Shown here one piece after another: positions 32,865 to 56,747 of a stretch of 64,000 nt of DNA; within the stretch, counting starts at the first letter, position 1; each line of letters starts with the position of its first letter. The notes below the pieces were generated by a model that saw nothing but the letters and a program-made list of their open reading frames with translations, was not told the DNA's origin and did no database searches. This DNA comes from Christensenellales bacterium. GTDB lineage: Bacteria > Bacillota > Clostridia > Christensenellales > CAG-138. The position numbers and the translations under genes are program-made. Location of the stretch: contig JAXGNN010000001.1 in NCBI GenBank assembly GCA_040767925.1, positions 1,240,285-1,304,284 of the forward strand. The letters run 5' to 3'.

Positions 32865-32893
32865 TTGAATTCTTGTTTGCGATCGGTTATACT
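32865..32893 (+). promoter_or_regulatory. Sigma-A-like promoter facing the particle operon
   Basis: TTGAAT-17bp-TATACT. Confidence 0.6.
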
Positions 32894-32897
32894 TTTT

Positions 32898-32997
32898 ATG
32901 GTGGGAGGAGCGGCATGCTCCTCCCATAATCTTTGGTCCGTGCCTGCCGCAAAAGGCACCGGCGCGCGCATCCCGACGGGGTGCGTTTTTTCTTTTT
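32898..32997 (+). ncRNA. Putative structured leader or small RNA (three hairpins ending in an intrinsic terminator)
   Basis: TGGGAGGAGC-ggcat-GCTCCTCCCA; GTGCCT-gccgcaaa-AGGCAC; CGCATCCC-gac-GGGGTGCG followed by TTTTTTCTTTTT. Confidence 0.45.
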
Positions 32998-33054
32998 GGC
33001 GATCGCGGAATCGGGGCCCGCGAGCGCCTGGGATACGCGCCGCAAGGAGACGGG

Positions 33055-33627
33055 ATGAACATGAACAGGGCAAGGCCCGCGGCGGGGGCGCAAAAGGCGC
33101 TTGCCGTCCCGGGCGGAAACGCGGGCGCGGAAGCCATCCGCGCGGAATACGAGAACAGCCCGGAGTACAGGCTGGGCTGCGAGATCATCGATGAGCTCAC
33201 CGAGGCGCTCGGCATCGGCGCGGACGAGGTCGCCGCGATGCTCAGCGCGAAAACGCGCCCCCCGGGCTTCGACATGCTCGGGATGCAGGCGGCAAGCGCG
33301 CTCGAGGCGATGGAGAAGAACGGCCAGCTTTCGCGCGGCGTCGAGGAATACCTCTCTGACGCGAACTTCGTCAAACTCCTCAGGGAAGTGCCCGCGCAGG
33401 TGGCCGTGCGCCTTTCCGACGCGGAAGCCTCGACCAAAAAGGCGAACGAGCGCGTGGGCGCGGAGCGAAGCGCCGGCATCCAGGAGGTGCTCGAGAAACT
33501 CCGGGCGCGCCGCTCCCTCCCCGCGCAGACGCGCGCGGGCGCGACCGCTTCTGCCAAGCCGGATTTCTCCAACATGAGCACGGAGGAGTTCAACGCGTTT
33601 AAGCGCCGCTTCTTCGGCCACCGCTGA
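33055..33627 (+). CDS. Putative capsid scaffolding protein
   Basis: Helical, charged protein directly upstream of the capsid gene; C-terminal PDFSNMSTEEFNAF is typical of scaffolds; AAGGAG RBS. Confidence 0.6.
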   Translation: MNMNRARPAAGAQKALAVPGGNAGAEAIRAEYENSPEYRLGCEIIDELTEALGIGADEVAAMLSAKTRPPGFDMLGMQAASALEAMEKNGQLSRGVEEYLSDANFVKLLREVPAQVAVRLSDAEASTKKANERVGAERSAGIQEVLEKLRARRSLPAQTRAGATASAKPDFSNMSTEEFNAFKRRFFGHR

Positions 33628-33696
33628 AAACCGCGCGGGCGCCGCGGCGAGCAAGCAACGCAACAGCCAATAAGAAAAGCAAGAAAGGGAAAAAAC

Positions 33697-34902
33697 ATGA
33701 GCAACATCAACACGGTCCAAAACACCGCGTCCACGACGCATCTCGGCAAGGACTACTACGACCGCGCGATCCTCGAGGGCGCCCGGACGCGCTTCGTCCA
33801 CGCCAAATACGGCCAGAAGCGCAGCATCCCCCTCAACAACGGCAAGCGGGTGGAGTTTCGCAGGTGGAACCTGTTCGACGTCAACGAGGACATGTGCAAG
33901 CTCGAGGAGGGCGTAACGCCCGCCGGGCAGAGCCTCTCGCAGAGCAGCGTCGAGGCCGAGGTGGAGCAGTACGGCGCGTACGTCGAGCTCTCCGACCTTC
34001 TGGAAGACACGGCCTACGACCAGGTTTCCTCCGACAGCGCGGAACTTCTGGGCGAGCAGCTCGGCACGGTCGTCGAGTGGGTGACGCGCGACGCCATGTG
34101 CGGCGGCAACAACGTGCAGCGCGCGGGCGGCAAGGCTTCGCGCGCGCTCATCGCGGCGGCGGACACCCTCACGACCACGGAGGTGCGCAAAGCCGTGCGC
34201 ACGCTCAAGAAAGCCAAGGCACGCCCGTTCGCCGGCGAGGGGAACCGCAGGCCGCATTTCATCTGCATCTGCTCCCCCGACGCCACCTACGATTTGCAGA
34301 ACGACACGCTCTGGCAGGACGTTTCCAAATACTCCGGCTCGGAGCAGATCTATTCCGGCGAGATCGGCCGCATATTCGGCGTGGTGTTCGTGGAATCCAC
34401 GGAGTCGAAGGTCATCCGCCAGGCGGTGCACACGCAGGTCGCGAGCCACAGCGCGGGCAGCGCCAACGTCGTGGTGGACGAGATTACGGACGCCGCGTTC
34501 GCCTTCCTCTCCCGCGCGGGCGCGAAGGTCACCATCGGCGCGACGGAATACACGGCTTCCTCCGTCGATCAGGGGACGAAGACCATCGCGCTCTCCGCCC
34601 CCGTCGGCTCCGCCATCGCCGCGGACACCTATGTGTACAGCACAGAAGCGGGCGCCGTCAACGCGACGGACAAGACCGCCGCCGACGTGCACTTCTCCCT
34701 CGTGTTCGGCAAGGACGCCTACGGCGTCGTCGACCTCGAGGGGCGCGGCGCGATGCAGAGCATCGTCAAGCCCCGCGGCTCCGCCGGCGCGGACGACCCG
34801 CTCGATCAGCGCTCCACCGTGGGCGCGAAGGTGCCCGCCTACGCGGCCATCATACTCAACGACCTGTGGCTCGTGCGAATCGAGCACGGCGCGAGCGCGT
34901 AA
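33697..34902 (+). CDS. N4-gp56 family major capsid protein
   Basis: YYDRAIL, KYGQKRSIPLNNGKRVEFRR, LEEGVTPAG, QYGAYVELSD, GEIGRIFGVVFVES, FGKDAYG, GSAGADDPLDQRSTVGAK, WLVRIE. Confidence 0.9.
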   Translation: MSNINTVQNTASTTHLGKDYYDRAILEGARTRFVHAKYGQKRSIPLNNGKRVEFRRWNLFDVNEDMCKLEEGVTPAGQSLSQSSVEAEVEQYGAYVELSDLLEDTAYDQVSSDSAELLGEQLGTVVEWVTRDAMCGGNNVQRAGGKASRALIAAADTLTTTEVRKAVRTLKKAKARPFAGEGNRRPHFICICSPDATYDLQNDTLWQDVSKYSGSEQIYSGEIGRIFGVVFVESTESKVIRQAVHTQVASHSAGSANVVVDEITDAAFAFLSRAGAKVTIGATEYTASSVDQGTKTIALSAPVGSAIAADTYVYSTEAGAVNATDKTAADVHFSLVFGKDAYGVVDLEGRGAMQSIVKPRGSAGADDPLDQRSTVGAKVPAYAAIILNDLWLVRIEHGASA

Positions 34903-34931
34903 AATCGATTTTTCGCCACATCCCTTCGTTT

Positions 34932-34961
34932 GCGGGAGGCGGGCATTTGCCCGCCTCCCGC
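34932..34961. other. Perfect GC-rich hairpin after the capsid gene (no U tail)
   Basis: GCGGGAGGCGGGC-attt-GCCCGCCTCCCGC. Confidence 0.6.
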
Positions 34962-35034
34962 GCCCTTCGGCGCGAAGCACCCGGAACCGTCCCCGCGAAT
35001 GCAACGGAAACATAATAGAAAGGAAACGCCATAC

Positions 35035-36750
35035 ATGAAAAACCTGATTTACCACAGCGCGCCCAAGGGCGTACGGACGAGGGAGGAATTGAAGGAGCTC
35101 CAGAAGAACATCGGCGTCGCGCCCGACGGCGTGTGGAGCGCCGCCTCGGAAGCGGCCTACGAAAAGTACCTCGAGAGGTTCAGGGAGCCGATGACCGCCG
35201 CCTATCAGGTGGAAGGCTATTACGCGCCCGGCATGGTGCGCAACCAGAAGGACGTGAAGATGATGCAGGAGCTCCTCGGCAACGTGGCCGTCGACGGCGT
35301 CTGGGGCCCGGAGACCGACTCCGCCTACTGGCAGCGCATCGCGCTCGAGGAGGCGCGGGACAGCGGGAGCGTGCCGGAGGTATCCGCAACGCTCGCTTCC
35401 AGAATCTCAGCGGCGATAGCAAACACCAAGCCCGTGCCGGAAAACGGCATGCTTTTTCCGGCAAAGGCCGCAAGCGGATTGTCTGGAAGCAGATCGTCTG
35501 GATATACCGACAAGCCCCCCATGACTCAATCTTCACCTAACTCCGGGACAGGGCTTGCAGGAAGGATTGCGCAGGGAACAATGCCCAACAACGTTGATAT
35601 GGGCGCGGTTTCGGGCGCGAGCAACAACAAACCTGCAAGTGAAGAGAGCCTGCCGTTTTTCGCCACTCTTGACGCCGTCGATCAATATTACAACCCGCAA
35701 ATCGATGATCTATTAAAGAAGTATCTTTCCCTAAGAGCCGATGCGGGCCTTCGCGGCAAGCCTAAAGGTATCGGGGAGACGGACGACATCAGAGAAGCTT
35801 TACTCGACTATGAGCAGCTCATGGAACAACGTGATATGGCATATACCGGGGTTAAAAACCGCCAGAGAGAGGAGGCTCCTTATAACCCACGCCACAAGCC
35901 GCAGAAAAAGCGCAGCCGTTCTACGGGTGCGAATGAGCCAACGCTGACGGAACAGTTTCTTGAGTCCGAAACGCCGCCGCAAGATTTCATTGATTACATT
36001 TTTGAGTATGCTGATGACAACTACAGGCTTAAGAAAGACTTGATTGATGAATTCTACAACGTTTTCATTCCAACATATGCAGAAGTTTTAAAGGAGAAGA
36101 CGAATTATGTTTTGCCCGAATGGAATCCTTATCCCTATAAAAAACGAGCCATAGTCGTGGTGGACAAGAATAATGATCCTTGGGAGGTGCTAACTTTTAA
36201 TAATCCCGACTATGACGAAATTCTCGATGTGTATTTAGCTATAGAAAATGGGGAAACGCCGAAATTTACATCCTTCGAGTCAGCGACATATCGGCCGCAT
36301 TTTCACAGAACACCAGCTAAGCAATATGGCGAGTTTTCGTATAGTCCATATTTCCTAACAGCATCTGGATATTGTTTCAGTGTATACATGAATGGAGAAT
36401 ATACAAAGACTGCATATGTGGGTAATGAAATACCTTATGACGTTCAAATCGATGTAGATAAGAGAAAAATCTCAACATATCTTGAAGATATTGAAAAAAA
36501 CTATCTTTTCGAAGTGTTGCCTCAAGCGGTGCTTTCTTTTACAACAAATGCAGCGCTTGAGTATGCCGGCATGAGCGAGTATGATGTCGAGCGTTTTAAC
36601 AATGTCATGGAACTATATGAAATGTCGCAGCCTGAGCCAGCTTTTCCAGAGATACAATACAAAGCCGAGTACGAAATATACGTGTCAGTTAAAGTATACA
36701 ATAGTCGGCATCCTAACGGCAAGTGGGTGGAAGGGTTTGGCATAGAATAA
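35035..36750 (+). CDS. Putative polymorphic toxin/effector: two N-terminal PG-binding-like DGVW repeats, S/G/P linker, AT-rich unknown C-terminal domain
   Basis: Start MKNLIYH after GAAAGGA; repeats ..LQKNIGVAPDGVWS..AAY and ..MQELLGNVAVDGVWGPETDSAY; GC drops after about 35400. Confidence 0.65.
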   Translation: MKNLIYHSAPKGVRTREELKELQKNIGVAPDGVWSAASEAAYEKYLERFREPMTAAYQVEGYYAPGMVRNQKDVKMMQELLGNVAVDGVWGPETDSAYWQRIALEEARDSGSVPEVSATLASRISAAIANTKPVPENGMLFPAKAASGLSGSRSSGYTDKPPMTQSSPNSGTGLAGRIAQGTMPNNVDMGAVSGASNNKPASEESLPFFATLDAVDQYYNPQIDDLLKKYLSLRADAGLRGKPKGIGETDDIREALLDYEQLMEQRDMAYTGVKNRQREEAPYNPRHKPQKKRSRSTGANEPTLTEQFLESETPPQDFIDYIFEYADDNYRLKKDLIDEFYNVFIPTYAEVLKEKTNYVLPEWNPYPYKKRAIVVVDKNNDPWEVLTFNNPDYDEILDVYLAIENGETPKFTSFESATYRPHFHRTPAKQYGEFSYSPYFLTASGYCFSVYMNGEYTKTAYVGNEIPYDVQIDVDKRKISTYLEDIEKNYLFEVLPQAVLSFTTNAALEYAGMSEYDVERFNNVMELYEMSQPEPAFPEIQYKAEYEIYVSVKVYNSRHPNGKWVEGFGIE

Positions 36751-36752
36751 AA

Positions 36753-37346
36753 TCAATTCGGATATGTAAAAGCCCTCGTATACCCATGAGAAAGGCGCGA
36801 ATATATAACCGTGCGCACCTGAAGGCCAGTTTTATTTGTTACATCGCCAAACGACAGCCGGTTAAGATATCTATAATCCAGAAAAAAGACACTGAAGGAG
36901 TCTTCCGTCCATGTGAATGGTTCCAACTCATAGACACTATGTTCACGTTCATCCTTCGATGCATATTTGAAAAAAGCGCTGTAGAGATACTCGTTTATTG
37001 CAATTAGCCTCGTAGGCTCACTATATACGCTTACCGTTTCATCTATGCGGATTGCGTAAACTATGCCATCCCGCTCACGGCTGTAAACACGAAAGCAAAT
37101 ATCCTCATCGCCTATTACCGGCACGATACGGCACACAATGCCGTTACTGATACAAAATGAATTGTCGGTGATAGTATCATCCAGTTCAATGCCATCGGGA
37201 GAATTCCCCGCATTGAAACGCTCGATAAACTCGGAAGAATTCTTTATACCGGGCAGTACCTGGTCAAAGTATGTGGAGAGCAGCAACCACATAAGTCCCA
37301 GAATTATTGTTGCGCCAGCAATCCACCAAAAGAGCTTTTTGCGCAT
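36753..37346 (-). CDS. Membrane-anchored AT-rich protein, candidate immunity for the 35035 effector
   Basis: MRKKLFWWIAGATIILGLMWLLL N-terminal TM after GGGGGA; its stop is 2 nt from the effector stop; similarly low GC. Confidence 0.6.
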   Translation of the reverse strand: MRKKLFWWIAGATIILGLMWLLLSTYFDQVLPGIKNSSEFIERFNAGNSPDGIELDDTITDNSFCISNGIVCRIVPVIGDEDICFRVYSRERDGIVYAIRIDETVSVYSEPTRLIAINEYLYSAFFKYASKDEREHSVYELEPFTWTEDSFSVFFLDYRYLNRLSFGDVTNKTGLQVRTVIYSRLSHGYTRAFTYPN

Positions 37347-37601
37347 ATCTTCATCCCCCTGTGAGCAAAGGATATATGCGCTGCCGAAAAATGTCAACGG
37401 GAAGGATCTCGCGAACCCCTTTCCTCTGAACTGCATCTCGGAACTCGATCGCGCAATAAGCCGAAAGACAACTGAGATGCAGTTCATTTTGCTGATATCT
37501 ATTATATACATGTAGGCAAGCAGAAGGCCGATGCGCGCTTGCCCCTCCGTTGACAAATTAGTTGGGACAACAGTATACTCATGGCAACACCACGCCCAAA
37601 C

Positions 37602-37995
37602 CCCAACTCCATCAGGAAACGATCCTCCTGGCATTGATGAGGCCCATGGCGAGCGCAACAAACCGGCCGACCGTGCGCCCGGAACCACAGCCGTACTTTG
37701 GCAAAGGAAACCGCAGCCCCCGAAAAGACGCCGATCCAGGCCGATTACGAGGCGCTGAAGCGCTTTTCCTACCGGGACATCAGCGACAAGCCCTCCGTCT
37801 ACGAGGAACCCGGCACGGGAAGGACGAGGCCGCCGAAGGAAGGAGATACGTCGAAAGGCAGCGACGGCCGGTCTGATTTCTCTACCAATAAGGACGCTGT
37901 GATTGTATACGCGAGCAACCTGCTCAATCTGACGACCGCGAGAGAGAACAAAGAGGCGTGCTGTAACCTGTACTCGGTGATGGTCGATGGGAAAA
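37602..37995 (+). repeat. About 400-bp direct repeat, copy 1 (5' flank of toxin cassette)
   Basis: Near-identical to 39285-39677 (cccaactccatcaggaaacg...gggaaaag). Confidence 0.92.
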
Positions 37996-38522
37996 GATAT
38001 TACTTTACTGGTGAGGTTTTTATAGGCGAATATGGCAACGTGGTTACTCCATATTTAGCCGATTCATTATGGGAACGGTTGTATGTTTACCTAGTGGGGC
38101 TGTCCTATTTCAATCCAGTTAAATACGAAGGATTTATGCACTCACATCCATACTCTAGCAGTTCTGAAAGTTTTTCTAATCCGGACAGCGTTGTTGCATT
38201 TCTTTCGGGCGATATTTACCTTACAACACAAAGCGGTCGGATTAAAAAATTAACCGCAAAAGAGGCATGGGATAGCAAGTTCTCGAACCCGCCATCCAAA
38301 TCCTATAATGGCCTTTCCAGTATTGACACTACCTATGTGAGGAATATAAACGAAGGCTATATTCCAAATGACAATGATGTTATCGTAGCTCAAGTAAAAC
38401 AACGATACGATGAGGAACTTTCTTCTTTTCTGGAACTGCTTTTACAGGGTATGATTGAGGCTTCAGAAGATAGATATGAAAAACTTAGTGAAGAAGGTAA
38501 AAGATATGATTACAACAAATAA
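37602..38522 (+). pseudogene. Orphan toxin C-terminal cassette 1, DUF4329/JAB-like, with a +1 frameshift near 37703
   Basis: NKEACCNLY...EGFMHSHPY...FSNPD...IYLTTQSG. It reads ggcaaagg where copy 2 reads ggcaagg, which splits ORFs 37562 and 37698. No convincing RBS or start. Confidence 0.65.
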
Positions 38523-39234
38523 AGCACCAAAACACAGTAAGATCATTTTTTTATGTATCCTTCTCGCCTTGTTGTTCTCAGGTTGTATGATTGATGCCGA
38601 TGATAGGCTAACGTCAATGATGTTAATCAAGCCTCCCGATAAGATCATTTATTCCGTCGGACAGGATGATAAAATTGACGTTGGGGGCGCGGTTGTGCGA
38701 ACGCATCAGGATGTCATAAATCCTGAGGGCTTTTATCTTGAAAGAATCCTTTCTCATTTTGAGCAGAGCTATATACATACCAATACAGATTTTCAAAAAG
38801 CGGGCGTATATACGGTATTCGTCGCCCATAAGCGGTGGTTTTTCTTCTGGAAGGTTTATTTTCAATACACCATACAGGTCGTTTCTTTGGAAACCTATAG
38901 CCCTCAACCGGCAACGGAATTAGACTTTTATGCAAGAGATGCCGAATCAACCAAGTGTATAAATACCAGCGCCTATATGCTTGTTCCTCCACTCAACATC
39001 ATTTACCCTGTTGGTTATACAGGCGAAATCGACCTGTCGGGCATAGTAGTAAAACCGGCAAAAGGCTTATTCCCGAAGGAATATAACATCACAGATCTCG
39101 ACTACACGCTCGAGAGCGACGTGGACTTCAACACGCCGGGGAATTACATTGTGAAGGTGTTTTTCACGGACGACAGGGGGCGGGATTTATGGTTCTGCTT
39201 CACCGTGGCGGTCGCGGAGCCGGTGGAGAGGTAA
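38506..39234 (+). CDS. Lipoprotein with two bacterial Ig-like domains, candidate immunity protein 1
   Basis: Lipobox LLFSGC; KPPDKIIYSVG...TDFQKAGVYTVFV and PPLNIIYPVG...VDFNTPGNYIVKV repeats; overlaps the toxin stop. Confidence 0.7.
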   Translation: MITTNKAPKHSKIIFLCILLALLFSGCMIDADDRLTSMMLIKPPDKIIYSVGQDDKIDVGGAVVRTHQDVINPEGFYLERILSHFEQSYIHTNTDFQKAGVYTVFVAHKRWFFFWKVYFQYTIQVVSLETYSPQPATELDFYARDAESTKCINTSAYMLVPPLNIIYPVGYTGEIDLSGIVVKPAKGLFPKEYNITDLDYTLESDVDFNTPGNYIVKVFFTDDRGRDLWFCFTVAVAEPVER

Positions 39235-39236
39235 GC
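39082..39236 (+). repeat. About 155-bp direct repeat, copy 1 (3' flank of cassette)
   Basis: Near-identical to 40935-41089. Confidence 0.92.
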
Positions 39237-39284
39237 GTGGATGGATGTAGATACGGCAGCCTTGGGAAACCGGGGCTGCCGAAT

Positions 39285-39677
39285 CCCAACTCCATCAGGA
39301 AACGATCCTCCCGGCATTGATGCGCCCCATGGCGGGCGCATCAAACCGGCCGACCGTGCGCCCGGAGGCGCAGCCGTACTTTGGCAAGGAAACCGCAGCC
39401 CTCGAAAAGACGCCGATCCAGGCCGATTACGAGGCGCTCAAGCGCTTTTCCTACCGGGATATCAGCGACAGGCCCTCCGTCTACGAGGAACCCGGCACGG
39501 GAAGGACGAGGCCGCCGAAGGAAGGAGATACGTCGAAAGGCAGCGACGGCCGGCCTGATTTCTCTACCAATAAGGACGCTGTGATTGTATATGCCAGCAA
39601 CCTGCTCAACCTGACGACCGCGAGAGAAAACAAAGAGGCGTGCTGTAATCTGTACTCGGTGATGATCGACGGGAAAA
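39285..39677 (+). repeat. About 400-bp direct repeat, copy 2
   Basis: Matches 37602-37995. Confidence 0.92.
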
Positions 39678-40363
39678 GGCACTATTTCACTGGCGAAATC
39701 TTCGTAGGCGAGTTGGACAATGTGATCGTACCATATCTATCGGATGCTTTATGGGAATGGGAAAATACTTTTCTTAATGGACTTCTCGATTCCAAACGGA
39801 TTACCTATGAAGGGTTTATGCACTCGCATCCATATGATAATGTTTCCGATACGTACTCGGGAGGAATCGGAGATACCGCTGTTGCGATGCTTTCCGGTAA
39901 TATCTATCTCACAACACCTAAGGGGCATATCTACGACTTGGTACGGCCGGAAGAGATTATAAATGAATTGCTTAGAGCCAAGGGCGGGATTATGAGTTCT
40001 GCATTAACGCAAGCCCCGGCGAACGCCAAAGATGTCAAGGATTATCAGGACGCCCTGATCGCTTTAAAAGGATGGTTTAAGAATCCGCCGGAAGTGCCGT
40101 ATAACAACCTTCACAGCGTTGATACTACTGGTATTAGCATCTATAATCAAGTATATGATCGCAACATGCCTAAGGTTATCATAAATCTAGTCCAGCGTTA
40201 CTGGGAAAAAGAACATGGGCCCCTCGGCTTTGACTTATATGAAGCATATAAAAACCCAGGTTACCTTTTTGATGAACTCCGGCAGCAGCTCGGCCTTTTT
40301 GCAGAAGAAGCGGAACGGCAATACTACGAAAACGGAGGATCTCTAGATTATGGCAGCAAATAA
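39317..40363 (+). CDS. Orphan toxin C-terminal cassette 2, DUF4329/JAB-like
   Basis: Same conserved leader as cassette 1, then EGFMHSHPY...YSGGIGD...IYLTTPKG. The frame stays open upstream to a stop at 39248, with no clear RBS. Confidence 0.65.
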   Translation: MMRPMAGASNRPTVRPEAQPYFGKETAALEKTPIQADYEALKRFSYRDISDRPSVYEEPGTGRTRPPKEGDTSKGSDGRPDFSTNKDAVIVYASNLLNLTTARENKEACCNLYSVMIDGKRHYFTGEIFVGELDNVIVPYLSDALWEWENTFLNGLLDSKRITYEGFMHSHPYDNVSDTYSGGIGDTAVAMLSGNIYLTTPKGHIYDLVRPEEIINELLRAKGGIMSSALTQAPANAKDVKDYQDALIALKGWFKNPPEVPYNNLHSVDTTGISIYNQVYDRNMPKVIINLVQRYWEKEHGPLGFDLYEAYKNPGYLFDELRQQLGLFAEEAERQYYENGGSLDYGSK

Positions 40364-41087
40364 GCCTATAGTACGTTTCTTAGTTGTTTTAATAAGCGTT
40401 CTTCTAGCCTTGCTGCTCACAAGCTGCTCCGTACTTCCCGATTATCGTATGCAAGCCTTAATGTTGGTGAAACCTCCCGATAAACTGATTTATGTGATTA
40501 GACAGGATCAGAAACTGAACGCAAGCGGTGGGAGAATTATAGAGTACGCTGATTTTAATGGCGGTCGCCATGTGAAAATCAGCCTAGAATCATATGACTA
40601 TGATGCTTATGACGGGAAGTACTTTCACACAAACGCAAATCTCATTAGAGAGGGGACGTATATAGTCTCAATCGCCAAAAGGCATCTGTTTTTCTTCTGG
40701 AAGCGTTACTTCCAATTTACGATTCAGGTTGTTTCCCCAGGAAAATACAATGTCGATTCCTGTGTTCCCGAAGATGACTTCACATACGAGGAACTCGAGC
40801 CGACATATTGTGAAAACGCCACCGCCTACATGCTTACTCCTCCCTCAAACATTATTTATCCGGTAGGACATGAAGGTGCAATCGACCTTTCTGGTCTCGT
40901 AGTAAAGCCGGTAGAGGGAATGTTCGTGGAACCTTATAACATCACAGATCTCGACTACACGCTCGAAGGCGACGTGGACTTCAACACGCCCGGGAATTAC
41001 ATTGTGAAGGTGTTTTTCACGGACGACAGGGGGCGGGATTTATGGTTCTGCTTCACCGTGGCGGTAGCGGAGCCGGTGGAGGAGTAA
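40350..41087 (+). CDS. Lipoprotein with two bacterial Ig-like domains, candidate immunity protein 2
   Basis: Lipobox LLLTSC; paralog of 38506 with a divergent N-half and near-identical C-terminus; overlaps the toxin stop. Confidence 0.7.
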   Translation: MAANKPIVRFLVVLISVLLALLLTSCSVLPDYRMQALMLVKPPDKLIYVIRQDQKLNASGGRIIEYADFNGGRHVKISLESYDYDAYDGKYFHTNANLIREGTYIVSIAKRHLFFFWKRYFQFTIQVVSPGKYNVDSCVPEDDFTYEELEPTYCENATAYMLTPPSNIIYPVGHEGAIDLSGLVVKPVEGMFVEPYNITDLDYTLEGDVDFNTPGNYIVKVFFTDDRGRDLWFCFTVAVAEPVEE

Positions 41088-41089
41088 GT
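40935..41089 (+). repeat. About 155-bp direct repeat, copy 2
   Basis: Matches 39082-39236. Confidence 0.92.
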
Positions 41090-41143
41090 GCCTTATCCAT
41101 TCCTAAGGCAACCGCCCAAAATAGAATACGCGATCCGGTAAGG

Positions 41144-48347: not shown

Positions 48348-48387
48348 TTTATAATGATATATCCAAGGGATTACGCGCGGAGGGAAC

Positions 48388-49350: not shown

Positions 49351-49475
49351 ACGAAGGGATTCCGCAAGCGGAATCCCCGATTTTATGCGCTTTTCCCCGC
49401 CGCAGCGGAAAGCTATTCACGATTCACTATTCGCTATTCGCTATTCGCTAGAGAATTGACAAATTCATTGTCAGT
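49351..49475. repeat. Hairpin plus (TATTC(A/G)C)n heptamer tract
   Basis: acgaagggattccgcaagcggaatccc, as at 4535, and gctattcacgattcactattcgctattcgctattcgcta. Confidence 0.7.
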
Positions 49476-50217
49476 TCTCCATGATCGGCCCTCCGCGGCG
49501 GACGACGGGCGAATCCCAGTAGCGCAGTTCGCCGCCGTACTTTTCGGCGATGCGGATGGCGCGCGTGGTCAGGGCGTCGATCTCGGCCTTCTCGAGCGTC
49601 GCGAGGCGCACGATGGCGACGCCGTAGGCGAGCTCATGGTCCGGCTCATAGACGGGTTTCGCGATGGCGAAGCCCGAAAGCCGCGCCTGCTCGGAAAAGA
49701 GCAGCATGATGCTCTCCGTCGCGAAGAACAGCGAGAGGGTGACGCGGCGAAGGCTCGCGGCATTGTCCCCGTTCTTGCGCAGAAGGGCGATCTGGTCCCC
49801 GTTGCGCTCGGTCTGGAGCTTGGCGGCGTCCGGATAGAGCAGCGAGCGGTAGGTCACCCACTCCGGCTCCTCCGCGCCGCCCGCGCGACAGAGCAATATG
49901 CGCTCGCGGTCCGCGATTTCGTCGAGGAGCTTCTTTAGCCGCCTCTCCTGCGCGTAGAAATAGAACTGCCTTTGCGCGCCGATCCCGATCGATCCCGCGT
50001 ACAGGCACGCGCTTTGCTTGAGGAAGCCCTTTTTCAGGCTCTCCGCGCGCGCGGATTCGATGGCGCTCAGGGAGTGCGCCTCGCGGCGACGGCTTTCGCA
50101 GCTCAGGTACAGAAGCACCGGCCATTCCGCAGAGGGAATGTCCGCAAGCTCCATATCGACCTCGAAGCGCGCCATAGCGCCCTCGATGGGCCAATCATAC
50201 CCGAACCACTGCGCCAT
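49471..50217 (-). CDS. DUF695 / RraB-like domain protein
   Basis: RQFYFY, EPEW..Y...LYP, L.KNGD....R, and C-terminal GG....W pattern. Confidence 0.65.
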   Translation of the reverse strand: MAQWFGYDWPIEGAMARFEVDMELADIPSAEWPVLLYLSCESRRREAHSLSAIESARAESLKKGFLKQSACLYAGSIGIGAQRQFYFYAQERRLKKLLDEIADRERILLCRAGGAEEPEWVTYRSLLYPDAAKLQTERNGDQIALLRKNGDNAASLRRVTLSLFFATESIMLLFSEQARLSGFAIAKPVYEPDHELAYGVAIVRLATLEKAEIDALTTRAIRIAEKYGGELRYWDSPVVRRGGPIMEN

Positions 50218-50219
50218 TT

Positions 50220-52007
50220 TTACTCAAGCACGGCCTTGATCCTGCGCACGCCGGCGCTGGAGGCCTCCTCTTTCTTGATTTTAAAGCTGCCGAGCTCGCC
50301 CGTGCGGGAAGCGTGCGGCCCGCCGCAGATTTCCTTGGAGAAGTTGCCCATGGTGTATACCTTGACGCGCTCGCTGTACTTGTCGCCGAAAAGGCCCATG
50401 GCGCCCTCGGCGCGGGCCTCTTCCACGGACATCTCGACGCAGGTGATCTCAGCGTCCTCCCTGATGGCGGCGTTGACGAGGCGCTCGACCTCTAAGAGCT
50501 CCTCCTCGGTCAGCTTGCGCTCGAAGCTGAAGTCGAAGCGCAGCCTCTCCGCCGTGATGTTGCTGCCCTTCTGCGCGACGCTGTCGCCCAGCACTTTGCG
50601 AAGCGCGGCCTGCAAAAGGTGCGTCGCCGTGTGCAGGCGCGCCGTCTGCTCGCCCGTGTCGGCAAGGCCGCCCTTGAAGCGCTGCTCCGCGCCCGCCTGC
50701 GACTTCCTCTGGTGCTCGGCGAACGCCTCCTCGAAGCCCTTCGCGTCGACCGAAAGGCCGTTTTCCGCGGCCATCTCCTCTGTAAACTCGATGGGGAAGC
50801 CGTAGGTGTCGTAAAGATGGAAGGCGGTGACGCCGTCGATGACGCCGCCGGGGAAGTTGGCCTTCACGCGCTCGAACTCGCGCATGCCGTTTTTGAGCGT
50901 GCGCTGGAAGCGGGCCTCCTCGCGGGAAAGCTCCTCGGTGATTTTATTGCGGTTCTGCTCCAGCTCGGGATACACCTTGCCGTAGCGTTCGATCACGGCC
51001 TCAGCGACGTGCTTCAGGCTGTCCTGCGGCATGTCGAGCTGCATGGCGTAGCGGATGGCGCGGCGGATGAGCCGCCTTAGGATATACCCCTGGTCGATGT
51101 TCGAGGGCGTGACGCCGCGCGGGTCGCCGATGATGAAGCTCGCGCAGCGGACATGGTCCGCGATGATGCGAAAGGCGCGGACGGTCGCGTCGCTGTCCTT
51201 ATAATTCTTCCGGGAAAGCTCCGCGATCCTCGCGATGATGCCGGTAAACGCGTCCGTATCGAACACGCTCTCGGCGCCCTGCAACGTGGCGATCGTGCGG
51301 TCGAGCCCCATGCCGGTGTCGACGTTCTTCTGGGAGAGCGGCTCGAACCTGCCCTCGCCCAGCTTGTTGTATTCCATAAAGACGTTGTTCCAGATTTCAA
51401 GGTACTTCCCGCAGGAGCACGAGGGGTTGCACTCCGCGCAGCACGCGGGCTTGCCCGTGTCGTAGAAGATCTCCGTATCCGGCCCGCAGGGGCCCGTCAT
51501 GCCCGCGGGGCCCCACCAGTTATCCTTCTTGCCGAGGAAGAAGATATGCGCGGGGTCCGCGCCCATCTCGACCCAGCGGTCGTGCGCCGCGACGTCGCGC
51601 GGCGCGTCCGCGTCGCCCGCGAAGCAGGTGAAATAGAGCTTTTCCTTCGGGATGCCGAGCCACTTCTCATCCGTGAGGAACTCCCAGCTCCACGCGATGG
51701 ACTCGCGCTTGAAGTAGTCCCCGAGAGACCAGTTGCCGAGCATCTCGAAGAAGGTGCAGTGCGAGGAATCGCCCACCTCGTCGATGTCGCACGTGCGCAC
51801 GCACTTCTGCACGTCCGCGAGCCTCCTGCCCGCGGGATGCTTCTCGCCCATCAGGTACGGCACGAGGGGGTGCATGCCCGCGGTCGTGAACAGCACCGTG
51901 GGGTCGTTTTCCGGTATGAGCGAAGCCGAGGGGATGATGGCGTGCCCCCGCTCGGCAAAGAATTTAAGGTAGAGCTCGCGAAGCCCGTCCGAGGTCAAGT
52001 TGCGCAT
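50220..52007 (-). CDS. alaS: Alanine--tRNA ligase (short form without C-Ala domain)
   Basis: DPTVLFTTAGM, HCTFFEMLGNWSLGDYFK, VDTGMGLDR, HTATHLL, EICGGPH, GVRRIKA. Confidence 0.96.
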   Translation of the reverse strand: MRNLTSDGLRELYLKFFAERGHAIIPSASLIPENDPTVLFTTAGMHPLVPYLMGEKHPAGRRLADVQKCVRTCDIDEVGDSSHCTFFEMLGNWSLGDYFKRESIAWSWEFLTDEKWLGIPKEKLYFTCFAGDADAPRDVAAHDRWVEMGADPAHIFFLGKKDNWWGPAGMTGPCGPDTEIFYDTGKPACCAECNPSCSCGKYLEIWNNVFMEYNKLGEGRFEPLSQKNVDTGMGLDRTIATLQGAESVFDTDAFTGIIARIAELSRKNYKDSDATVRAFRIIADHVRCASFIIGDPRGVTPSNIDQGYILRRLIRRAIRYAMQLDMPQDSLKHVAEAVIERYGKVYPELEQNRNKITEELSREEARFQRTLKNGMREFERVKANFPGGVIDGVTAFHLYDTYGFPIEFTEEMAAENGLSVDAKGFEEAFAEHQRKSQAGAEQRFKGGLADTGEQTARLHTATHLLQAALRKVLGDSVAQKGSNITAERLRFDFSFERKLTEEELLEVERLVNAAIREDAEITCVEMSVEEARAEGAMGLFGDKYSERVKVYTMGNFSKEICGGPHASRTGELGSFKIKKEEASSAGVRRIKAVLE

Positions 52008-52166
52008 ACGTCGTTCTTCTCCTTGATAATTCACACTTTGTTCGTGATTATTCAGTATATCCCAATCGCCCGCGCCTTGTCAACGCGCGCCGGCGCGGGT
52101 ATAATGAGCCATGATATCCCCACGCCATTGGATCGTCGAGCGATATTCAGCGAAGGCGAAGAACGA

Positions 52167-53084
52167 ATGAAAGTACGCGCATACAGGGGCTTTCGCAGCC
52201 CCAAGGACAGGAAAAAACGCAGGTTCAGCCCCATCACCTTCCGCGGAGAGGAGGGCAGGACGCCCCGGCGGGTGCTCTTCACCGCGCTCGGCGCCGCGTT
52301 GCTGCTCGTCGTGCTCATCGCGACGCGCTCCGAGCCCGCGCTGATGAACAGCGCGGAGGTCGCGACGGTTTGGGACAGGGGCGTGCTGCGCGTGGGCGTG
52401 CGCGCGGACATGCCCGGCATGGCCATGGACGGCGAGGGGCTTGAAATCGAGCTCGCGCGCCTGCTCGCCGAGCGGATCATGCGCGCGGACAATTCCTGGC
52501 CGGGCGGGCAGCCGGTGGAACTCGTGCCTGTGAACGCCATGAGCGTCGCGGCGAAGCTCTCCGACGGCAGCATAGACGCCGCCGTCTGCCTCATGCCCGC
52601 AAACGCGTATTCCGGATACGCGTACTCCCGCGCGTACTATACGGACACGATCCATTTCCTCACGCGCGCGGGCGAGAAGGGGACGCCGATCCAAAACATC
52701 AAAATCGGCTGCCTCCAGTCGGCGAGCGGCACGAGCCTGTACGTCCCCTCGGGCGCCGTCTACAACGCGCTCGCGGCCTACGTCGAGGCGCACCCGGACG
52801 ACGGGCTTGCGGAAAGCATCGTCGCATACGCCTCCTACGAGGATCTGTTCCGCGGTCTTCTCGCGGGCGAAGTCGCGGCCGTCGCGCTCGACGGGCTGAC
52901 GCTTGGGAAATACAGGGACAGCTACGCCTTCGAGGTGAGCCCCGCAACCGTCGGCAGCGTCAGCTACGCGATCGCCTGCCTCAACGAGGCCTCCGCGATC
53001 GCCTCCATCGCCGACATGATGCTCTCCGACATGGAATCGGACGGCACGCTCGCCTCGCTGAAAGAAAAATACGGATTGAACTGA
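52167..53084 (+). CDS. Amino-acid ABC-type substrate-binding domain protein (family 3)
   Basis: N-terminal TM; RGVLRVGV, GLEIELARLLA, L.DGSIDA, DGTLASLKEKYGL. Confidence 0.75.
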   Translation: MKVRAYRGFRSPKDRKKRRFSPITFRGEEGRTPRRVLFTALGAALLLVVLIATRSEPALMNSAEVATVWDRGVLRVGVRADMPGMAMDGEGLEIELARLLAERIMRADNSWPGGQPVELVPVNAMSVAAKLSDGSIDAAVCLMPANAYSGYAYSRAYYTDTIHFLTRAGEKGTPIQNIKIGCLQSASGTSLYVPSGAVYNALAAYVEAHPDDGLAESIVAYASYEDLFRGLLAGEVAAVALDGLTLGKYRDSYAFEVSPATVGSVSYAIACLNEASAIASIADMMLSDMESDGTLASLKEKYGLN

Positions 53085-53179
53085 TCTATTGGCTTAAAAT
53101 TTACACGGCGCCCAAAATGCAAAAATCGAATTTGAATCCCGAAAACGGTACTTAGGTGCCGTTTTCGCCTTTTTGGCCG

Positions 53180-53235
53180 TTGCCCGGGCCCGTCCGGCGT
53201 GATAGAATGCGCCTACAAACACGAACATATATTCT
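53180..53235 (+). promoter_or_regulatory. Sigma-A promoter with a downstream LexA (Cheo) box-like operator
   Basis: TTGCCC-17bp-TAGAAT (TG-extended), then CGAAC-ATAT-ATTC at 53222-53234, one mismatch to GAAC-N4-GTTC. Confidence 0.65.
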
Positions 53236-53256
53236 ATTTTTAGGAGGAAACAGAAG

Positions 53257-53787
53257 ATGAAAAGAAAGGATTACGGCATCGAGAACATGATGGTGCTGCC
53301 GGAGACGCGCTCCGCGCGCGGGCGGAACAGCCATGTGGTCACGCGCGAGGAGGCGCGCTCGGCCGCCTACGCCGCGACGGAACGCCGCCTCCATCAGATG
53401 AAGCTCATCCGCGCCCGCATCGAGGACGCGAAGGAGGAGCTTGCGGAACTGGAGAACCTGGGCGTCGAGGCGCTGCGGGAGCACTCCTCGTCGCTCGTGC
53501 GCCTCCTCCGCCCCGGCATGCGCCTCGATCCCGAGGAGGTGCACGCCGCGCAGATGGCCTACCTGCGCTCCCGCCTCGCGGCGGACGAGCGCGAGATCCG
53601 CAAGATGACCGTGGCCATGGAGTGCGTCAAGGACGACCCGTACTTCCCAGCCCTCGACATGCGCTACGCGCGCGGCATGACGGACGCAGAGATCGCCGAA
53701 AAGCTCGCCTGCGACAAGACCACCGTCGCCCGCCACAGGAAGATGCTCGTCAGGGACCTCTCCGTGCGGCTCTACGGGGTGATCTAG
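53257..53787 (+). CDS. ArpU/RinA-like phage late-gene activator (sigma-70 region 4-type HTH)
   Basis: Coiled coil plus C-terminal MRY..GMTDAEIAEKLACDKTTVARHRKMLV..L...LYG; AGGAGG RBS. Confidence 0.7.
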   Translation: MKRKDYGIENMMVLPETRSARGRNSHVVTREEARSAAYAATERRLHQMKLIRARIEDAKEELAELENLGVEALREHSSSLVRLLRPGMRLDPEEVHAAQMAYLRSRLAADEREIRKMTVAMECVKDDPYFPALDMRYARGMTDAEIAEKLACDKTTVARHRKMLVRDLSVRLYGVI

Positions 53788-53788
53788 C

Positions 53789-55135
53789 ATGTGCGCGACG
53801 CTCCTTCTTCGCGGCGCGCCCAACCCGCGGCAGGCGGAGTTCTTCGTCTCGGGCGCGCGGCACACGGCCTACGGCGGCGCGCGCGGCGGCGGCAAAAGCT
53901 GGGCCATGCGAAGGAAGCTCGTGCTCCTTGCGCTGGCGACGCCGGAGTTGAACGCGCTGCTCATCCGGCGCACGCTCCCGGAGCTTCGCGAGAACCATTT
54001 AATCCCGCTCATGCGGGAGCTTGCGGGCGCCGCCCGCTACAACGCGAGCGAGCGCGTGTTCCGCTTCCCCAACGGCGCGCGGCTGCGCCTTGGCTACTGC
54101 GACGGGCAAAACGACGTCTATCAGTATCAGGGGCAGGAGTACGACGCCATCGGCATGGAGGAGGCCACGCACTTCACCGAGGAGCAGATGCGCTTCCTCA
54201 CCACCTGCAACCGCACCGTCAAACACGGTTTCCGCCCCAGGATGTACTACACCTGCAACCCCGGCAACGTGGGCCACGGCTGGGTCAAGCGGCTGTTCAT
54301 CGACCGCCTCTACGAGAACGGCGAGCGCCCCGAGGACTACCGCTTCATCCCCGCGCGGGTGTGGGACAACAAAGTTCTTCTCGCGGCCGACCCGGACTAC
54401 GTCCGCGCGCTCGAGAGCCTGCCGGAGGATTTGCGCCGCGCCTACCTCGACGGGGACTGGGACGTACACGCGGGTCAGTATTTCAGGGAGTTCTCGCGGC
54501 AGAGGCACGTCGTCGAGCCCTTCGAGCTCCCGCTATGGTGGAAGCGCTTCCGCTCCATGGACTGGGGCTACAACGACCCCTGCTGCGTGCTGTGGCACGC
54601 CGCGGACGGCGACGGACGCGTCTATACCTACCGCGAGCTGTATGTGCGCGCCGTGCGGGCGGACGAGGTCGCCGCGCGCGTGCGCGCCCTCTCGGAGGGC
54701 GAGAAGATCGCCTACACCGTGGCGAGCCCGGACATGTGGCAGAAGCGCGGCGCGGTGCTGAAGGCGGAGGGGGGCTTCGAAGGGGAGAGCATCGCGGAGC
54801 TGTTCGCGAAGTCCGGCGTGCCCCTCACGCCCGCGGACAACGCGCGCGTGGCGGGCTGGCAGCGGGTGAGGAGCTACCTCGCTTTGGCACAGGACGGCCT
54901 GCCGCTCTGGCAGGTGTTTGCCGGCTGCGGGGAACTCATCCGCACGCTCCCCATGCTCACCTATTCCCGGCACGACCGCGAGGACGCGGCGGACGGGGAC
55001 GACCACGCGCCGGAGGCGCTGCGCTACGCGCTCATGTCCCGCCCGCGCCGCAGCGCCGCGCCCGGGGAGGCGGTCAGGCGCGCCTACGACCCACTCTCGA
55101 TCGGGGCGCAGACAAGGGATTTCATGAATCGGTAA
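53789..55135 (+). CDS. Terminase large subunit
   Basis: PNPRQ adenine motif, YGGARGGGKS Walker A, YQGQEYDAIGMEEATHF Walker B, YTCNPG, SMDWGYNDP and DHAPEALRY nuclease motifs. Confidence 0.93.
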   Translation: MCATLLLRGAPNPRQAEFFVSGARHTAYGGARGGGKSWAMRRKLVLLALATPELNALLIRRTLPELRENHLIPLMRELAGAARYNASERVFRFPNGARLRLGYCDGQNDVYQYQGQEYDAIGMEEATHFTEEQMRFLTTCNRTVKHGFRPRMYYTCNPGNVGHGWVKRLFIDRLYENGERPEDYRFIPARVWDNKVLLAADPDYVRALESLPEDLRRAYLDGDWDVHAGQYFREFSRQRHVVEPFELPLWWKRFRSMDWGYNDPCCVLWHAADGDGRVYTYRELYVRAVRADEVAARVRALSEGEKIAYTVASPDMWQKRGAVLKAEGGFEGESIAELFAKSGVPLTPADNARVAGWQRVRSYLALAQDGLPLWQVFAGCGELIRTLPMLTYSRHDREDAADGDDHAPEALRYALMSRPRRSAAPGEAVRRAYDPLSIGAQTRDFMNR

Positions 55136-55157
55136 ATCATAAAAGGAGGATATTGAA

Positions 55158-56747
55158 ATGAACAAGGCCGAACAGACGCGCGTTGAAAGGCTCTACGCGC
55201 TTTTTGAGGAATACCGAAACGCCTACGCCGCGGAGTGGGAGCGGCTCGACAAATGCGAGCGCCTCTACCGCGGCGCGCACTGGGAGGATGTGCCCGTGAA
55301 GGACGCGAACGAGCCGCGCCCCGTGACGCCCATCATCCAATCCACGGTGGAGAACATCCGCGCGGACCTCATGGATCAGCTTCCCGAGGCGGTCGTCACC
55401 GCCGACGCGCCGGAAAACGGCGCGGTCGCCGAGGCGCTCACGGCGCTCCTCGCCGAAAACCACCGCAGGGGCCGCTTCGAGAAGGAATACGCGAACCTGC
55501 TGCACGACCTCGCCGTGGGCGGTTACATGGTGATGGAAACGGGCTACGACGAGAGCGAGAACAACGGCCTCGGCGCGGCGTTCATCCGCCACGCGGACGC
55601 GCACAACGTGCTCTTCGACCCGCTTGCGGCGGACATACAGGATTCCCGCGCCGTCTTCAAGCTCGCCCCCTATCCCGAGGAATGGTTCCGCGCGCATTTT
55701 TCCAAAAAGTTTGAGGAGATGGTTTCCGATCCCGTGACGATCGTGCCGCGGCGCGACGGATACCTCAACCGCGGCAACGGGAACGAACTGCTCCTTCTCG
55801 AGTGCTGGGAGCGCGAGTACGACCCCGAACTTCGCATCCATCGCGTGCACATGGCGAAGCTCGCGGGCGGCGTACTGCTCGAGGACAGCCGGGAGCTGAA
55901 GCCCGAGGGCTATTTCGCGCACGGGCGCTACCCGTTCGTCGTGACGCCGCTCTTCACGAGGAAGGGCACCGCGCTCGGCTACGGCTTCGCGGACATGTTC
56001 GAAACGCAGCAGCGCTACTCCGACAAGCTCGACCAGATCATTTTAAAAAACGCGCTCATGGCCTCGCACAACAAGCTCCTTGTCACGGGCGCTTCCGGCT
56101 TCGACGTGGACGACCTTCGCGACTGGTCGCGCGAGGTGCACCGAGGGGACAGCCTCGGCGGCGTGACGTGGTTCCCCACCCCTCCCCTGCCCGCCTACGT
56201 CGCGGGCTTCGCCCGCGCCATCCGCGACGGCGTAAAGGAGGAATCCGGCGCGACGGACTTCTCCCGCGGGGAGACCTACGGCGGCGTGACGGCGGCGGCC
56301 GCCATCGCCGCGCTGCAGGAGGCCTCCGGCAAGCGCGCGCGCATGGTGGCGCGCGTGGCGCACGGCGCGTTCGAGGAGGCGGTGCGCATGGAAATCGAGG
56401 TGGAGCGCGAGTTCTGCGCCTTCCCGCGGACGGTGAAGCTGCAGAACGGCAAAACGGCCTCCTTCTCGGGCGAGGACATGTACGTTCTCACGGGGCTCAA
56501 AAACCGCCTGCCCATCGAATTCGCCGTCACCGTGAAGGCGCAGCGCGAGAACCGCTTCACGGTTGCCGCGCACAACGAAACCGTCATGGGGCTCGTGCGC
56601 CTCAATATGATTTCGCCGGACGTCGGCCTCGAGCTCATGATGTTCGAGGGTAAGCGGCAGGCGCTCGACATGATGAAGCGCAGGACGGCCGCAATGGGCA
56701 GCCAGTTGACCGCAAACCGGCCGACGGAATCGCCGGGTGCGTTTTAG
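55158..56747 (+). CDS. Portal protein (P22/podovirus-like)
   Basis: Follows TerL; LYRGAHW...PIIQSTVEN, LFDP.A.DIQD, LLECW, YPFV, SGA.DFSRG....GVTAAAAIAALQEA. Confidence 0.82.
   Translation: MNKAEQTRVERLYALFEEYRNAYAAEWERLDKCERLYRGAHWEDVPVKDANEPRPVTPIIQSTVENIRADLMDQLPEAVVTADAPENGAVAEALTALLAENHRRGRFEKEYANLLHDLAVGGYMVMETGYDESENNGLGAAFIRHADAHNVLFDPLAADIQDSRAVFKLAPYPEEWFRAHFSKKFEEMVSDPVTIVPRRDGYLNRGNGNELLLLECWEREYDPELRIHRVHMAKLAGGVLLEDSRELKPEGYFAHGRYPFVVTPLFTRKGTALGYGFADMFETQQRYSDKLDQIILKNALMASHNKLLVTGASGFDVDDLRDWSREVHRGDSLGGVTWFPTPPLPAYVAGFARAIRDGVKEESGATDFSRGETYGGVTAAAAIAALQEASGKRARMVARVAHGAFEEAVRMEIEVEREFCAFPRTVKLQNGKTASFSGEDMYVLTGLKNRLPIEFAVTVKAQRENRFTVAAHNETVMGLVRLNMISPDVGLELMMFEGKRQALDMMKRRTAAMGSQLTANRPTESPGAF

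Follow-up and report, generated by a model that had tools for sequence, protein, structure and literature searches.

A split, podovirus-derived gene set resembling a gene transfer agent in a Christensenellales-type bacterial family

Gene transfer agents (GTAs) are particles that take up more or less random stretches of host DNA, each shorter than their own full gene set, and pass them on to recipient cells. They have long been known almost only from the Alphaproteobacteria and from a few isolated cases. The RcGTA-type agents of the Alphaproteobacteria are siphovirus-like, with an HK97-type head and a tape measure. PBSX of Bacillus subtilis is a killer particle with a contractile tail that packages host DNA and lyses its producer, and the capsid-forming satellites termed cf-PICIs are marked by an integrase, a replication initiator of their own and the absence of tail genes. 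Here, we describe a 64,000-nucleotide stretch of the genome of a Christensenellales bacterium (the window, meaning the whole of the DNA analysed; G000:C1:1240285-1304284, in a host genome of 2.71 Mb, 60% GC and three contigs) that carries phage-derived head, tail, packaging and lysis genes in two blocks on either side of the alanyl-tRNA synthetase gene alaS. This element is likely to be a vertically inherited, GTA-like particle system of podovirus derivation, long owned by its host lineage and kept by selection while it was being fragmented. Throughout, G-numbers denote genomes, G000 being the window's own, and L-numbers denote loci of relatives.

The closest described system is FpGTA of Faecalibacterium prausnitzii, the genes of which lie in two operons 125 kb apart (Nat Commun 2026;17:2046, PMC12946183). 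Its particles are podovirus-like, with capsids of about 40 nm and no visible tails, and contain 8.4-8.9 kb of packaged host DNA; the head locus has ten open reading frames (ORFs), comprising the small terminase (TerS), the large terminase (TerL), portal, scaffold, capsid and conserved hypotheticals, and the tail, fibre and lysis genes are found in the second locus (PMC12946183). According to that article, GTA-like packaging is common in gut Clostridia and has been tied to genes only in Faecalibacterium; 3 of 25 such events fell in 'Christensenellaceae' metagenome-assembled genomes (MAGs), for which the text names no gene cluster, and its authors leave open whether the particles serve gene transfer or another role (PMC12946183). 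The literature yielded no paper on the present element, and PMC12946183 was the only relevant one to pair GTA with 'Christensenell' and the only one to contain 'FpGTA'.

The present element resembles FpGTA in its seat on a Clostridia chromosome, its head and packaging genes of short-tailed-phage type, its near-ubiquity in the host group and the absence of other phage functions; a compact 8.5-kb core of ten ORFs in one relative (G116) has the same architecture. It differs in belonging to another order of Clostridia and in being known from genes alone, whereas particles and packaged DNA have been shown for FpGTA. The cut is also placed differently: FpGTA is divided between head and tail/lysis genes, whereas the window is divided between the lysis/DnaC-like genes and a regulator-TerL-portal unit, with alaS in the gap. 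Furthermore, where TerS would be expected, the window's lineage encodes a sigma-region-4-like protein, and no TerS is recognisable in this lineage. The two are set side by side by architecture, not by protein sequence. An earlier note on this stretch, made from the letters and their translations, had proposed a new clostridial GTA; the candidate locus stands, but a podovirus-like GTA in the Clostridia has a precedent in FpGTA (PMC12946183). The element is best filed as a further, family-wide case of the podovirus-derived, GTA-like elements of which Faecalibacterium provided the first example.

With RcGTA, the element has in common a long vertical inheritance, purifying selection, the lack of self-transfer functions, location in more than one locus and, as an expectation, regulation from the host side; unlike RcGTA, it is podovirus-like and has an N4-gp56-type capsid. 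It is a phage-like element of a Gram-positive chromosome, as is PBSX, and packaging of host DNA and lysis of the producer are predicted for it; unlike PBSX, no sheath, tube or tape-measure genes were found in it. Podoviruses with tail machines of the P22, SU10 and T7 type share its nozzle fold, its SU10_adaptor domain and its P22/SU10 portal families. Those viruses are autonomous, however, with genomes of about 40 kb or more and modules for replication and regulation, whereas the element consists of about 11-15 kb of phage-derived genes split by host genes.

Composition of the two blocks

Protein families of the window ORFs were assigned by scans against PHROGs (28 window ORFs), Pfam and NCBIfam. 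Block 1 (33055-49314) and block 2 (53257-56747) both lie on the forward strand, and together they cover head, connector, nozzle, packaging motor and lysis in full. Family, domain and fold matches bear out the gene list in two blocks around alaS that the earlier note had drawn up.

The major capsid protein (33697-34902, 401 aa) matched phrog_1357 (E 1.1e-62) and scored 228.5 bits against the equivalog model TIGR04387 capsid_maj_N4, for which the cut-off is 60; it is therefore a member of the N4-gp56 family, and it also appears as 'N4-gp56 family major capsid protein' in public sources. Ahead of it lies a putative scaffolding protein of 190 aa (33055-33627), named from position and conservation only: scans against PHROG and Pfam gave no family match, its gene is directly 5' of the capsid gene in every relative examined, and the ratio of nonsynonymous to synonymous substitution rates (dN/dS, calculated throughout by the Nei-Gojobori method) is 0.27 against G010, a separately assembled relative. 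On the far side of an insert described below, a conserved small protein without a match in the family scan (p93, 93 aa, 41244-41525) always precedes the adaptor in relatives and is a candidate head-completion or connector protein. The head-to-tail adaptor (41538-42083) was recognised by PF24175 SU10_adaptor (E 8.7e-7, 30 bits against a cut-off of 27). The tail nozzle or hub (42077-43513, 478 aa) gave an AlphaFold model with a mean confidence (pLDDT) of 90.9, the best Foldseek matches of which in the PDB were podovirus tail nozzle/hub chains (Pa223, E 9e-23, template modelling (TM) score 0.79), followed by P22 gp10 (E 2.9e-16), SU10 and T7 gp12; the nozzle named in the earlier note thus has a match by fold.

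Three ORFs in 43723-46558 had been labelled fibres in the earlier note, a label that is unproven. The first, p298 (43723-44619), has a PG_binding_1-like N-terminus (PF01471, E 3.3e-5), follows the nozzle in most relatives and is a candidate conserved tail-associated protein. The second, the fibre-like p375 (44598-45725), had weak PHROG matches, among them a virion structural protein, and its homologue in the complete genome G116 sits 77 kb from the core cluster. The third is a fibre-like protein with a glycine-rich domain (45722-46558; PF21722 Gly_rich_2, E 7e-9); its listed ORF opens at 45491, with a likely start at about 45722 judging from the translation. The lysis genes are an endolysin with an NlpC/P60 peptidase and an SH3 domain (46834-47820; PF00877, E 4.7e-13, and PF08239) and a holin (47817-48293; phrog_199, E 1.2e-27). 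Block 1 closes with a DnaC/IstB-like AAA+ ATPase (48388-49314; phrog_50, E 5.5e-32; PF01695), which also comes after the holin in G008, G010, L025, L028 and L030-L032 and has a dN/dS of 0.19. In block 2, a regulator-like gene is followed by TerL (53789-55135; phrog_979, E 3.7e-52; PF03237) and the portal (55158-56747; phrog_156, E 3.5e-45; P22_portal/SU10_portal).

No sheath, tube or tape-measure family was found in the 28 window ORFs scanned, which agrees with the tape measure having been reported as absent; as in FpGTA, structural genes of short-tailed-phage type (adaptor, nozzle) occur without long-tail genes. None of the genome's 11 tyrosine-recombinase matches or 7 serine-recombinase matches lies inside the window, no direct repeats of at least 16 nt bracket either block (the long repeats found being internal duplications), and the window contains no tRNA genes. 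The absence of an integrase and of att sites, claimed earlier, is therefore upheld. Neither a replication initiator nor a primase was found, and the DnaC-like ATPase is the element's only replication-type gene. In having phage-derived head, tail, packaging and lysis genes without replication, excision or integration functions of its own, the element has some of the traits of a GTA or viriform. It does not have those of a temperate prophage, namely an integrase, att sites and a contiguous genome with lysogeny and replication modules, and host genes lie inside the set.

The regulator-like protein, reg176 (53257-53787, 176 aa), is encoded just 5' of TerL and matched phrog_36 ('transcriptional regulator', E 1.9e-9) and, weakly, GerE. 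In its model (pLDDT 80), two long helices are accompanied by a three-helix bundle at the C-terminus that contains a sigma-70-region-4-like helix-turn-helix, and the best Foldseek matches of the model, which are weak, are to sigma factor region 4 (E 0.4-1; 3hug_K, TM score 0.65 over 71 columns). The name 'activator' given to it earlier has phrog_36 and the sigma-region-4-like model in its favour and is unproven; a late activator occupying the TerS position is a plausible but unproven role, and the protein may possibly act as TerS. In an FpGTA-type element, TerL is expected to be preceded by a small terminase that lacks any obvious DNA-binding domain. In a panel of 30 chosen family genomes, the gene at this place is a gp3-like TerS candidate in ten (PF16677, E 8e-6 in G116, below the cut-off) and of the reg176 type in nine, the latter belonging to the window's genus and one sister genus. 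A relationship between reg176 and the gp3-like TerS was considered and rejected (BLASTP E 0.36; hhalign probability 0.1%). Sequence searches of the PDB with reg176 and with both alignments returned nothing below E 0.04, and a reg176 profile found nothing convincing in G116, G097 and G023. We read the window's lineage as one without a recognisable TerS.

Inheritance, distribution and rearrangement

A tree built from capsid, TerL and portal was compared with a tree of AlaRS and RpoB for 29 genomes of the panel, and 21 of 26 splits were common to both, whereas relabelled trees had 0.27 splits in common on average and at most 3 in 1000 trials. Four of the five unshared host splits had support of at most 59, the fifth having 94. 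Mantel correlations of TerL and portal with AlaRS and RpoB were 0.82-0.89, compared with 0.92 between AlaRS and RpoB themselves, and were reached in 0 of 1000 permutations. Over ten genome pairs, dN/dS was 0.05-0.26 for capsid, TerL and portal and 0-0.13 for AlaRS and RpoB. In the comparison of G000 with G010, the 15 element genes covered, among them the tail, lysis, DnaC-like and regulator genes, all gave values of 0.15-0.42, and their synonymous divergence (dS, 0.35-1.14) overlapped that of neighbouring host genes (0.39-0.86). The element thus displays the vertical inheritance, co-divergence and purifying selection by which a GTA is recognised, subject to the irregularities of the capsid tree and of the closest pairs given below. 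The gene-tree and dN/dS comparisons that the earlier note had called for both came out in favour of a host-maintained element, dN/dS being 0.05-0.42 for every element gene tested.

The distribution was surveyed in 120 genomes from 50 genera of the same Christensenellales-type family (named relatives include Christensenella sp. UBA1685, Candidatus Pelethousia and Clostridium sp. CAG:138), 83 of which are at least 90% complete, and in 239 genomes belonging to the rest of the order. The capsid gene was present in 106 of the 120 family genomes, in 76 of the 83 more complete ones and in 46 of the 50 genera, nearly always as one copy, with no in-frame stop among the matches listed. The nozzle was detected in 100 family genomes: 99 have both genes, 13 neither, seven the capsid gene only and one the nozzle only. 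Four of the seven capsid-only genomes belong to one genus in which the match is just 37-40% identical and probably derives from another phage. All 30 panel genomes have portal, TerL, capsid and AlaRS, and a TerL search of 24 family genomes was positive in 22. Beyond the family, a capsid match turned up in 37 of the 239 genomes, with identities no higher than 52%. Hence, the patchy, strain-variable presence expected of a prophage, which the earlier note had given as grounds for doubt, is not what is seen (106/120 in the family against 37/239 elsewhere in the order).

Some distant homologues were also recorded. In families f27 (8 of 10 genomes), f18 (4 of 4) and f26 (5 of 10), capsid homologues of 38-52% identity occur, often in a shorter frame of about 320 aa, and could represent further conserved elements or an older common origin. 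G015, which is 94% complete and of the window's genus, has a TerL of 81% identity and no capsid match, and may have undergone partial loss of the gene set. The complete genome G091 has capsid and nozzle copies twice, about 26 kb apart (G091:C1:2538361-2542567 and 2564180-2567760), with capsid identities of 66% and 56%, a rare second and diverged set. IMG/VR contained only three close matches, all on short or host-like contigs, and the nearest capsid of a cultured phage, that of Bacillus phage Pascal, is 36% identical. Virome and IMG/VR contigs with distant capsid relatives (L305, L306, L278, L279) were dismissed as ordinary phage fragments, no small free phage being among them.

The neighbourhood is conserved as well, and in the synteny comparison suggested earlier, both the OAD-beta gene and alaS recurred as neighbours across genera. 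The former is directly 5' of scaffold-capsid in seven loci from several genera (L023, L024, L026, L027, L033, L035, L037) and within a few kb of it in L032 and L058, and the capsid identity across these loci falls from 92% to 58%. The latter is 2-5 kb from TerL or portal in G000, G010, G125, G137, G105 and G075. Layout classes track the clades of the tree. The canonical order TerS-TerL-portal-scaffold-capsid-p93-adaptor-nozzle is kept in one clade (G021, G023, G049, G050, G116, G060, G097, G099); TerL stands apart from portal-capsid in G018, G022, G075 and G052; and in the window's own and several further genera, TerL and portal together are separated from the capsid block. A search with the holin matched one of five canonical-clade genomes, and the lysis module of that clade was not located. 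The ten-ORF core of G116, a complete genome, has ordinary host genes on both sides, a gap of 28 kb divides the set in G008, on the contig of rpoB, and in many genomes the pieces are spread over several contigs or separated by host genes across tens of kb. Division into separate chromosomal loci, as known from FpGTA, is therefore seen in the window, G008 and G116, with break points unlike those of FpGTA. A working phage genome cannot be so scattered while every piece stays intact. We infer that the alaS gap is an old break point, located between the DnaC-like gene and the regulator-TerL-portal unit of an ancestral circular order.

The split layout is not a misassembly, since the separately assembled MAG G010 ('Firmicutes bacterium ADurb.Bin248'; capsid 89% identical) repeats the gene order of the window from OAD-beta to portal, gene for gene, with alaS between the blocks; the misassembly considered in the earlier note is thereby excluded. 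Evidence from sequencing runs consists of assembled contigs, not read depth. A contig of run X3, from another study, bridges AlaRS, the solute-binding protein gene, the regulator and the start of TerL (51731-53882), and 46515-49119 and 41382-45181 are covered by further contigs. Small 'joints', of which X3 and X9 have many (sides of 20-44 nt, 90% likeness), were set aside as most likely from other organisms or repeats.

Readings of the gene set

The best explanation of these data is that a podovirus with an N4-gp56-type capsid would have been endogenised in the ancestor of the Christensenellales-type family, and distribution, synteny, trees and dN/dS all support the earlier view of a host-maintained element rather than a prophage. 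A DNA-transferring function of the particle is inferred, and would proceed as follows. The genes would be activated in a subpopulation of cells, probably by the sigma-region-4-like protein whose gene lies immediately 5' of TerL; scaffold, portal and capsid protein would assemble procapsids; TerL would fill these with host DNA by headful packaging; adaptor, nozzle and fibre-like proteins would complete the particle; holin and NlpC/P60 endolysin would lyse the producer; and the freed particles would carry the DNA to related cells. Packaging without a specific site would fit the window's lineage, as no small terminase is recognisable there.

Several observations weigh against a GTA-like system under long host ownership. 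The system is known in this organism and its family from genes alone. A gp3-like profile found no small terminase in G000, G010, G008 and G125, and because none was found there, packaging competence is assumed. Evidence at the RNA level is weak: the metatranscriptome provided only small contigs, with eight listed pieces of 136-325 nt, for which DNA carry-over is possible. Taken by itself, the capsid follows the host less closely (18 of 26 splits; Mantel r 0.58-0.59). In the closest pairs, G060-G097 and G001-G012, dS of the element is 0.26-0.36 compared with 0.06-0.16 for AlaRS/RpoB, that is, two to five times higher; this, the main irregularity, suggests allele exchange between strains or weaker codon constraint. 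The capsid gene is missing from 14 of the 120 family genomes, seven of them at least 90% complete, and in-frame stops occur in 2 of 30 portal matches and in three nozzle matches. The orders of different clades are circularly permuted (TerS-TerL-portal-capsid... as opposed to capsid...holin-TerL-portal), which could in principle result from separate integrations. Finally, the tree panel was picked among carriers of the element, which leaves congruence unbiased but makes the panel uninformative on prevalence.

The strongest alternative, which we regard as unlikely but deserving of attention, is that the system was domesticated for a purpose other than gene transfer, as a PBSX-like killer or lysis particle, for programmed lysis with release of DNA or public goods, or for delivery of protein. 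Conservation, co-divergence and selection would fit any particle of benefit to the host, and the lysis module and the peptidoglycan-binding N-terminus of the tail protein are conserved; the authors of the FpGTA study leave the same question open (PMC12946183). However, TerL and portal are as conserved as capsid, from which it appears that DNA packaging itself is selected, and no toxin- or effector-like family was found by PHROGs in the 28 ORFs or by Pfam and NCBIfam, nor any sheath, tube or tape measure. The toxin-delivery particle that the earlier note had offered as its second option therefore gains no support, no toxin-like family having turned up in general scans of the window ORFs.

It is very improbable that the genes belong to a working lineage of temperate phages that has co-speciated with the hosts, integrates at fixed sites and has its missing integrase, lysogeny and replication genes encoded elsewhere. 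The circular permutation between clades and the retention of a DnaC-like gene would be in keeping with such a phage, and the raised dS in the closest pairs could mean re-infection. These points are opposed by the dispersal of the genes over separate contigs or tens of kb (28 kb in G008, 77 kb for the fibre-like gene of G116), by a G116 core of just 8.5 kb flanked by host genes, by the lack of an integrase in the window, and by the scarcity of viral relatives, with only three close IMG/VR matches on short or host-like contigs and a nearest cultured-phage capsid at 36% identity.

Equally slight is the probability of one or two ordinary defective prophage remnants decaying neutrally beside alaS, a proposal that is already largely refuted. 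Remnants of this sort would account for the missing integrase, the broken gene order, the foreign low-GC DNA inserted and the few relatives with in-frame stops or gene loss, but they would not be found as intact single copies in 106 of 120 family genomes and 46 of 50 genera, with dN/dS of 0.05-0.42 and with head, tail and lysis ORFs all open even where RpoB has diverged by 28%. The idea that a single widespread phage contaminates the MAGs is contradicted by the host genes that share contigs with the matches. Least probable of all is a helper-dependent, capsid-forming satellite of the cf-PICI kind, which the small size and the element's own capsid, portal and terminase genes might recall, but which is contradicted by the absence of an integrase, replication initiator or primase, by the element's own adaptor, nozzle, fibre-like and lysis genes and by its fixed and split state in the chromosome.

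With the GTA-like, host-owned system as the preferred reading, a concrete, family-wide candidate GTA locus becomes available for a second clostridial order, together with a comparative data set of co-divergence, stepwise cluster fragmentation and the exchange of the small terminase for an unrelated protein. Three questions become testable: whether abundant, mostly uncultured anaerobes swap DNA by means of their own particles, how a host dismantles and keeps a podovirus, and whether packaging specificity was lost along with TerS. More speculatively, and with rather less confidence than in the reading itself, we suggest that the domestication of an ancient podovirus with an N4-gp56 capsid might be as old as a family of at least 46 genera and possibly independent of FpGTA. 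The result might be an active GTA across this gut and anaerobic-digester Christensenellales family and the basis of the packaging seen in 'Christensenellaceae' faecal virus-like particles, with the window's lineage packaging without a small terminase under a sigma-like activator and swapping low-GC surface-protein cassettes beside the capsid gene.

The low-GC insert and the genes around the blocks

In composition, the conserved element genes resemble host genes (GC at third codon positions 0.74-0.93), and a Shine-Dalgarno-like motif precedes 12 of the 18 gene starts examined, in line with the good ribosome-binding sites described earlier. The host-like GC and codon usage reported in the same place applies to the conserved genes but not to 35000-41100, where GC is 38-48% compared with 60% genome-wide. 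This low-GC DNA forms most of the 6.3 kb between the capsid gene and p93 and is confined to the closest relatives. Its first gene, p606 (34930-36750, forward strand, likely start ATG at 35035), has a high-GC N-terminus and a low-GC remainder. Residues 38-80 are 42% identical over 43 residues to the N-terminus of p298, and p606 is possibly a fibre or spike with an exchanged distal part. Neither p606 nor the other insert proteins belong to a Pfam, PHROG or NCBIfam family, and an Atlas look-up with p606 scored 0.79, below its own chance range, and gave no usable lead.

The remainder includes a low-GC tandem duplication of two two-gene units (37596-41088, forward strand; repeat families D1, D4 and D6). 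The first gene of each unit encodes an unassigned protein (37698-38522 and 39317-40363) and the second a predicted lipoprotein with a signal peptide ending in Cys, as read from the translations (38455-39234 and 40350-41087), the paralogue pairs being 52-59% identical. As G010 carries three lipoprotein genes and more distant members of the genus none, with p93 directly after capsid, the insert appears recent and variable. It is read as lineage-specific duplicated lipoprotein genes, not recognisable virion genes, and may have a role in receptor binding or exclusion or be mere cargo.

Within block 1, a small protein, p77 (46568-46801, 77 aa), matched phrog_14370 (E 6e-4). On the left, the block is bordered by the host OAD-beta gene (31402-32508, reverse strand). 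Between it and the scaffold gene, a consensus scan, the only source of the promoter-like sites and hairpins mentioned here, found a promoter-like site (32865-32893) and terminator-like hairpins (32901-32986) on the forward strand; this interval (32865-32986) is possibly the left edge of the block-1 transcription unit. A further terminator-like hairpin (49356-49377) lies 3' of the DnaC-like gene.

Three host genes separate the blocks. A DUF695 plus RraB gene (49471-50217, reverse strand) is also found beside alaS in G010 and G125. The alanyl-tRNA synthetase (50220-52034, reverse strand, 604 aa; PF01411, E 4.7e-141) is the only one of two tRNA-synt_2c matches in the genome to exceed the cut-off. 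Being the sole copy, and of a length normal in the family (about 600 aa in 30 of 30 genomes), it is a host gene and not phage cargo. The second, sub-threshold match falls in a 433-aa frame (G000:C3:187716-187916). The usual AlaRS has about 870 aa, and the enzyme of this family apparently has no counterpart to its C-terminal part. The third gene, for an SBP_bac_3 solute-binding protein (about 52300-53084, forward strand; PF00497 on the C-terminal part of the 51153-53084 frame), keeps its position in G010 and G125.

Directly downstream of the portal, two tandem paralogous genes on the reverse strand (57107-59737; 466 and 405 aa, with DNA repeats 91-94% identical) had no Pfam or PHROG family and no homologue at the same position in G010. 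Upstream of the element, the reverse strand encodes a large host protein with CotH kinase, lamin-tail and chitobiase-C domains (25090-27519).

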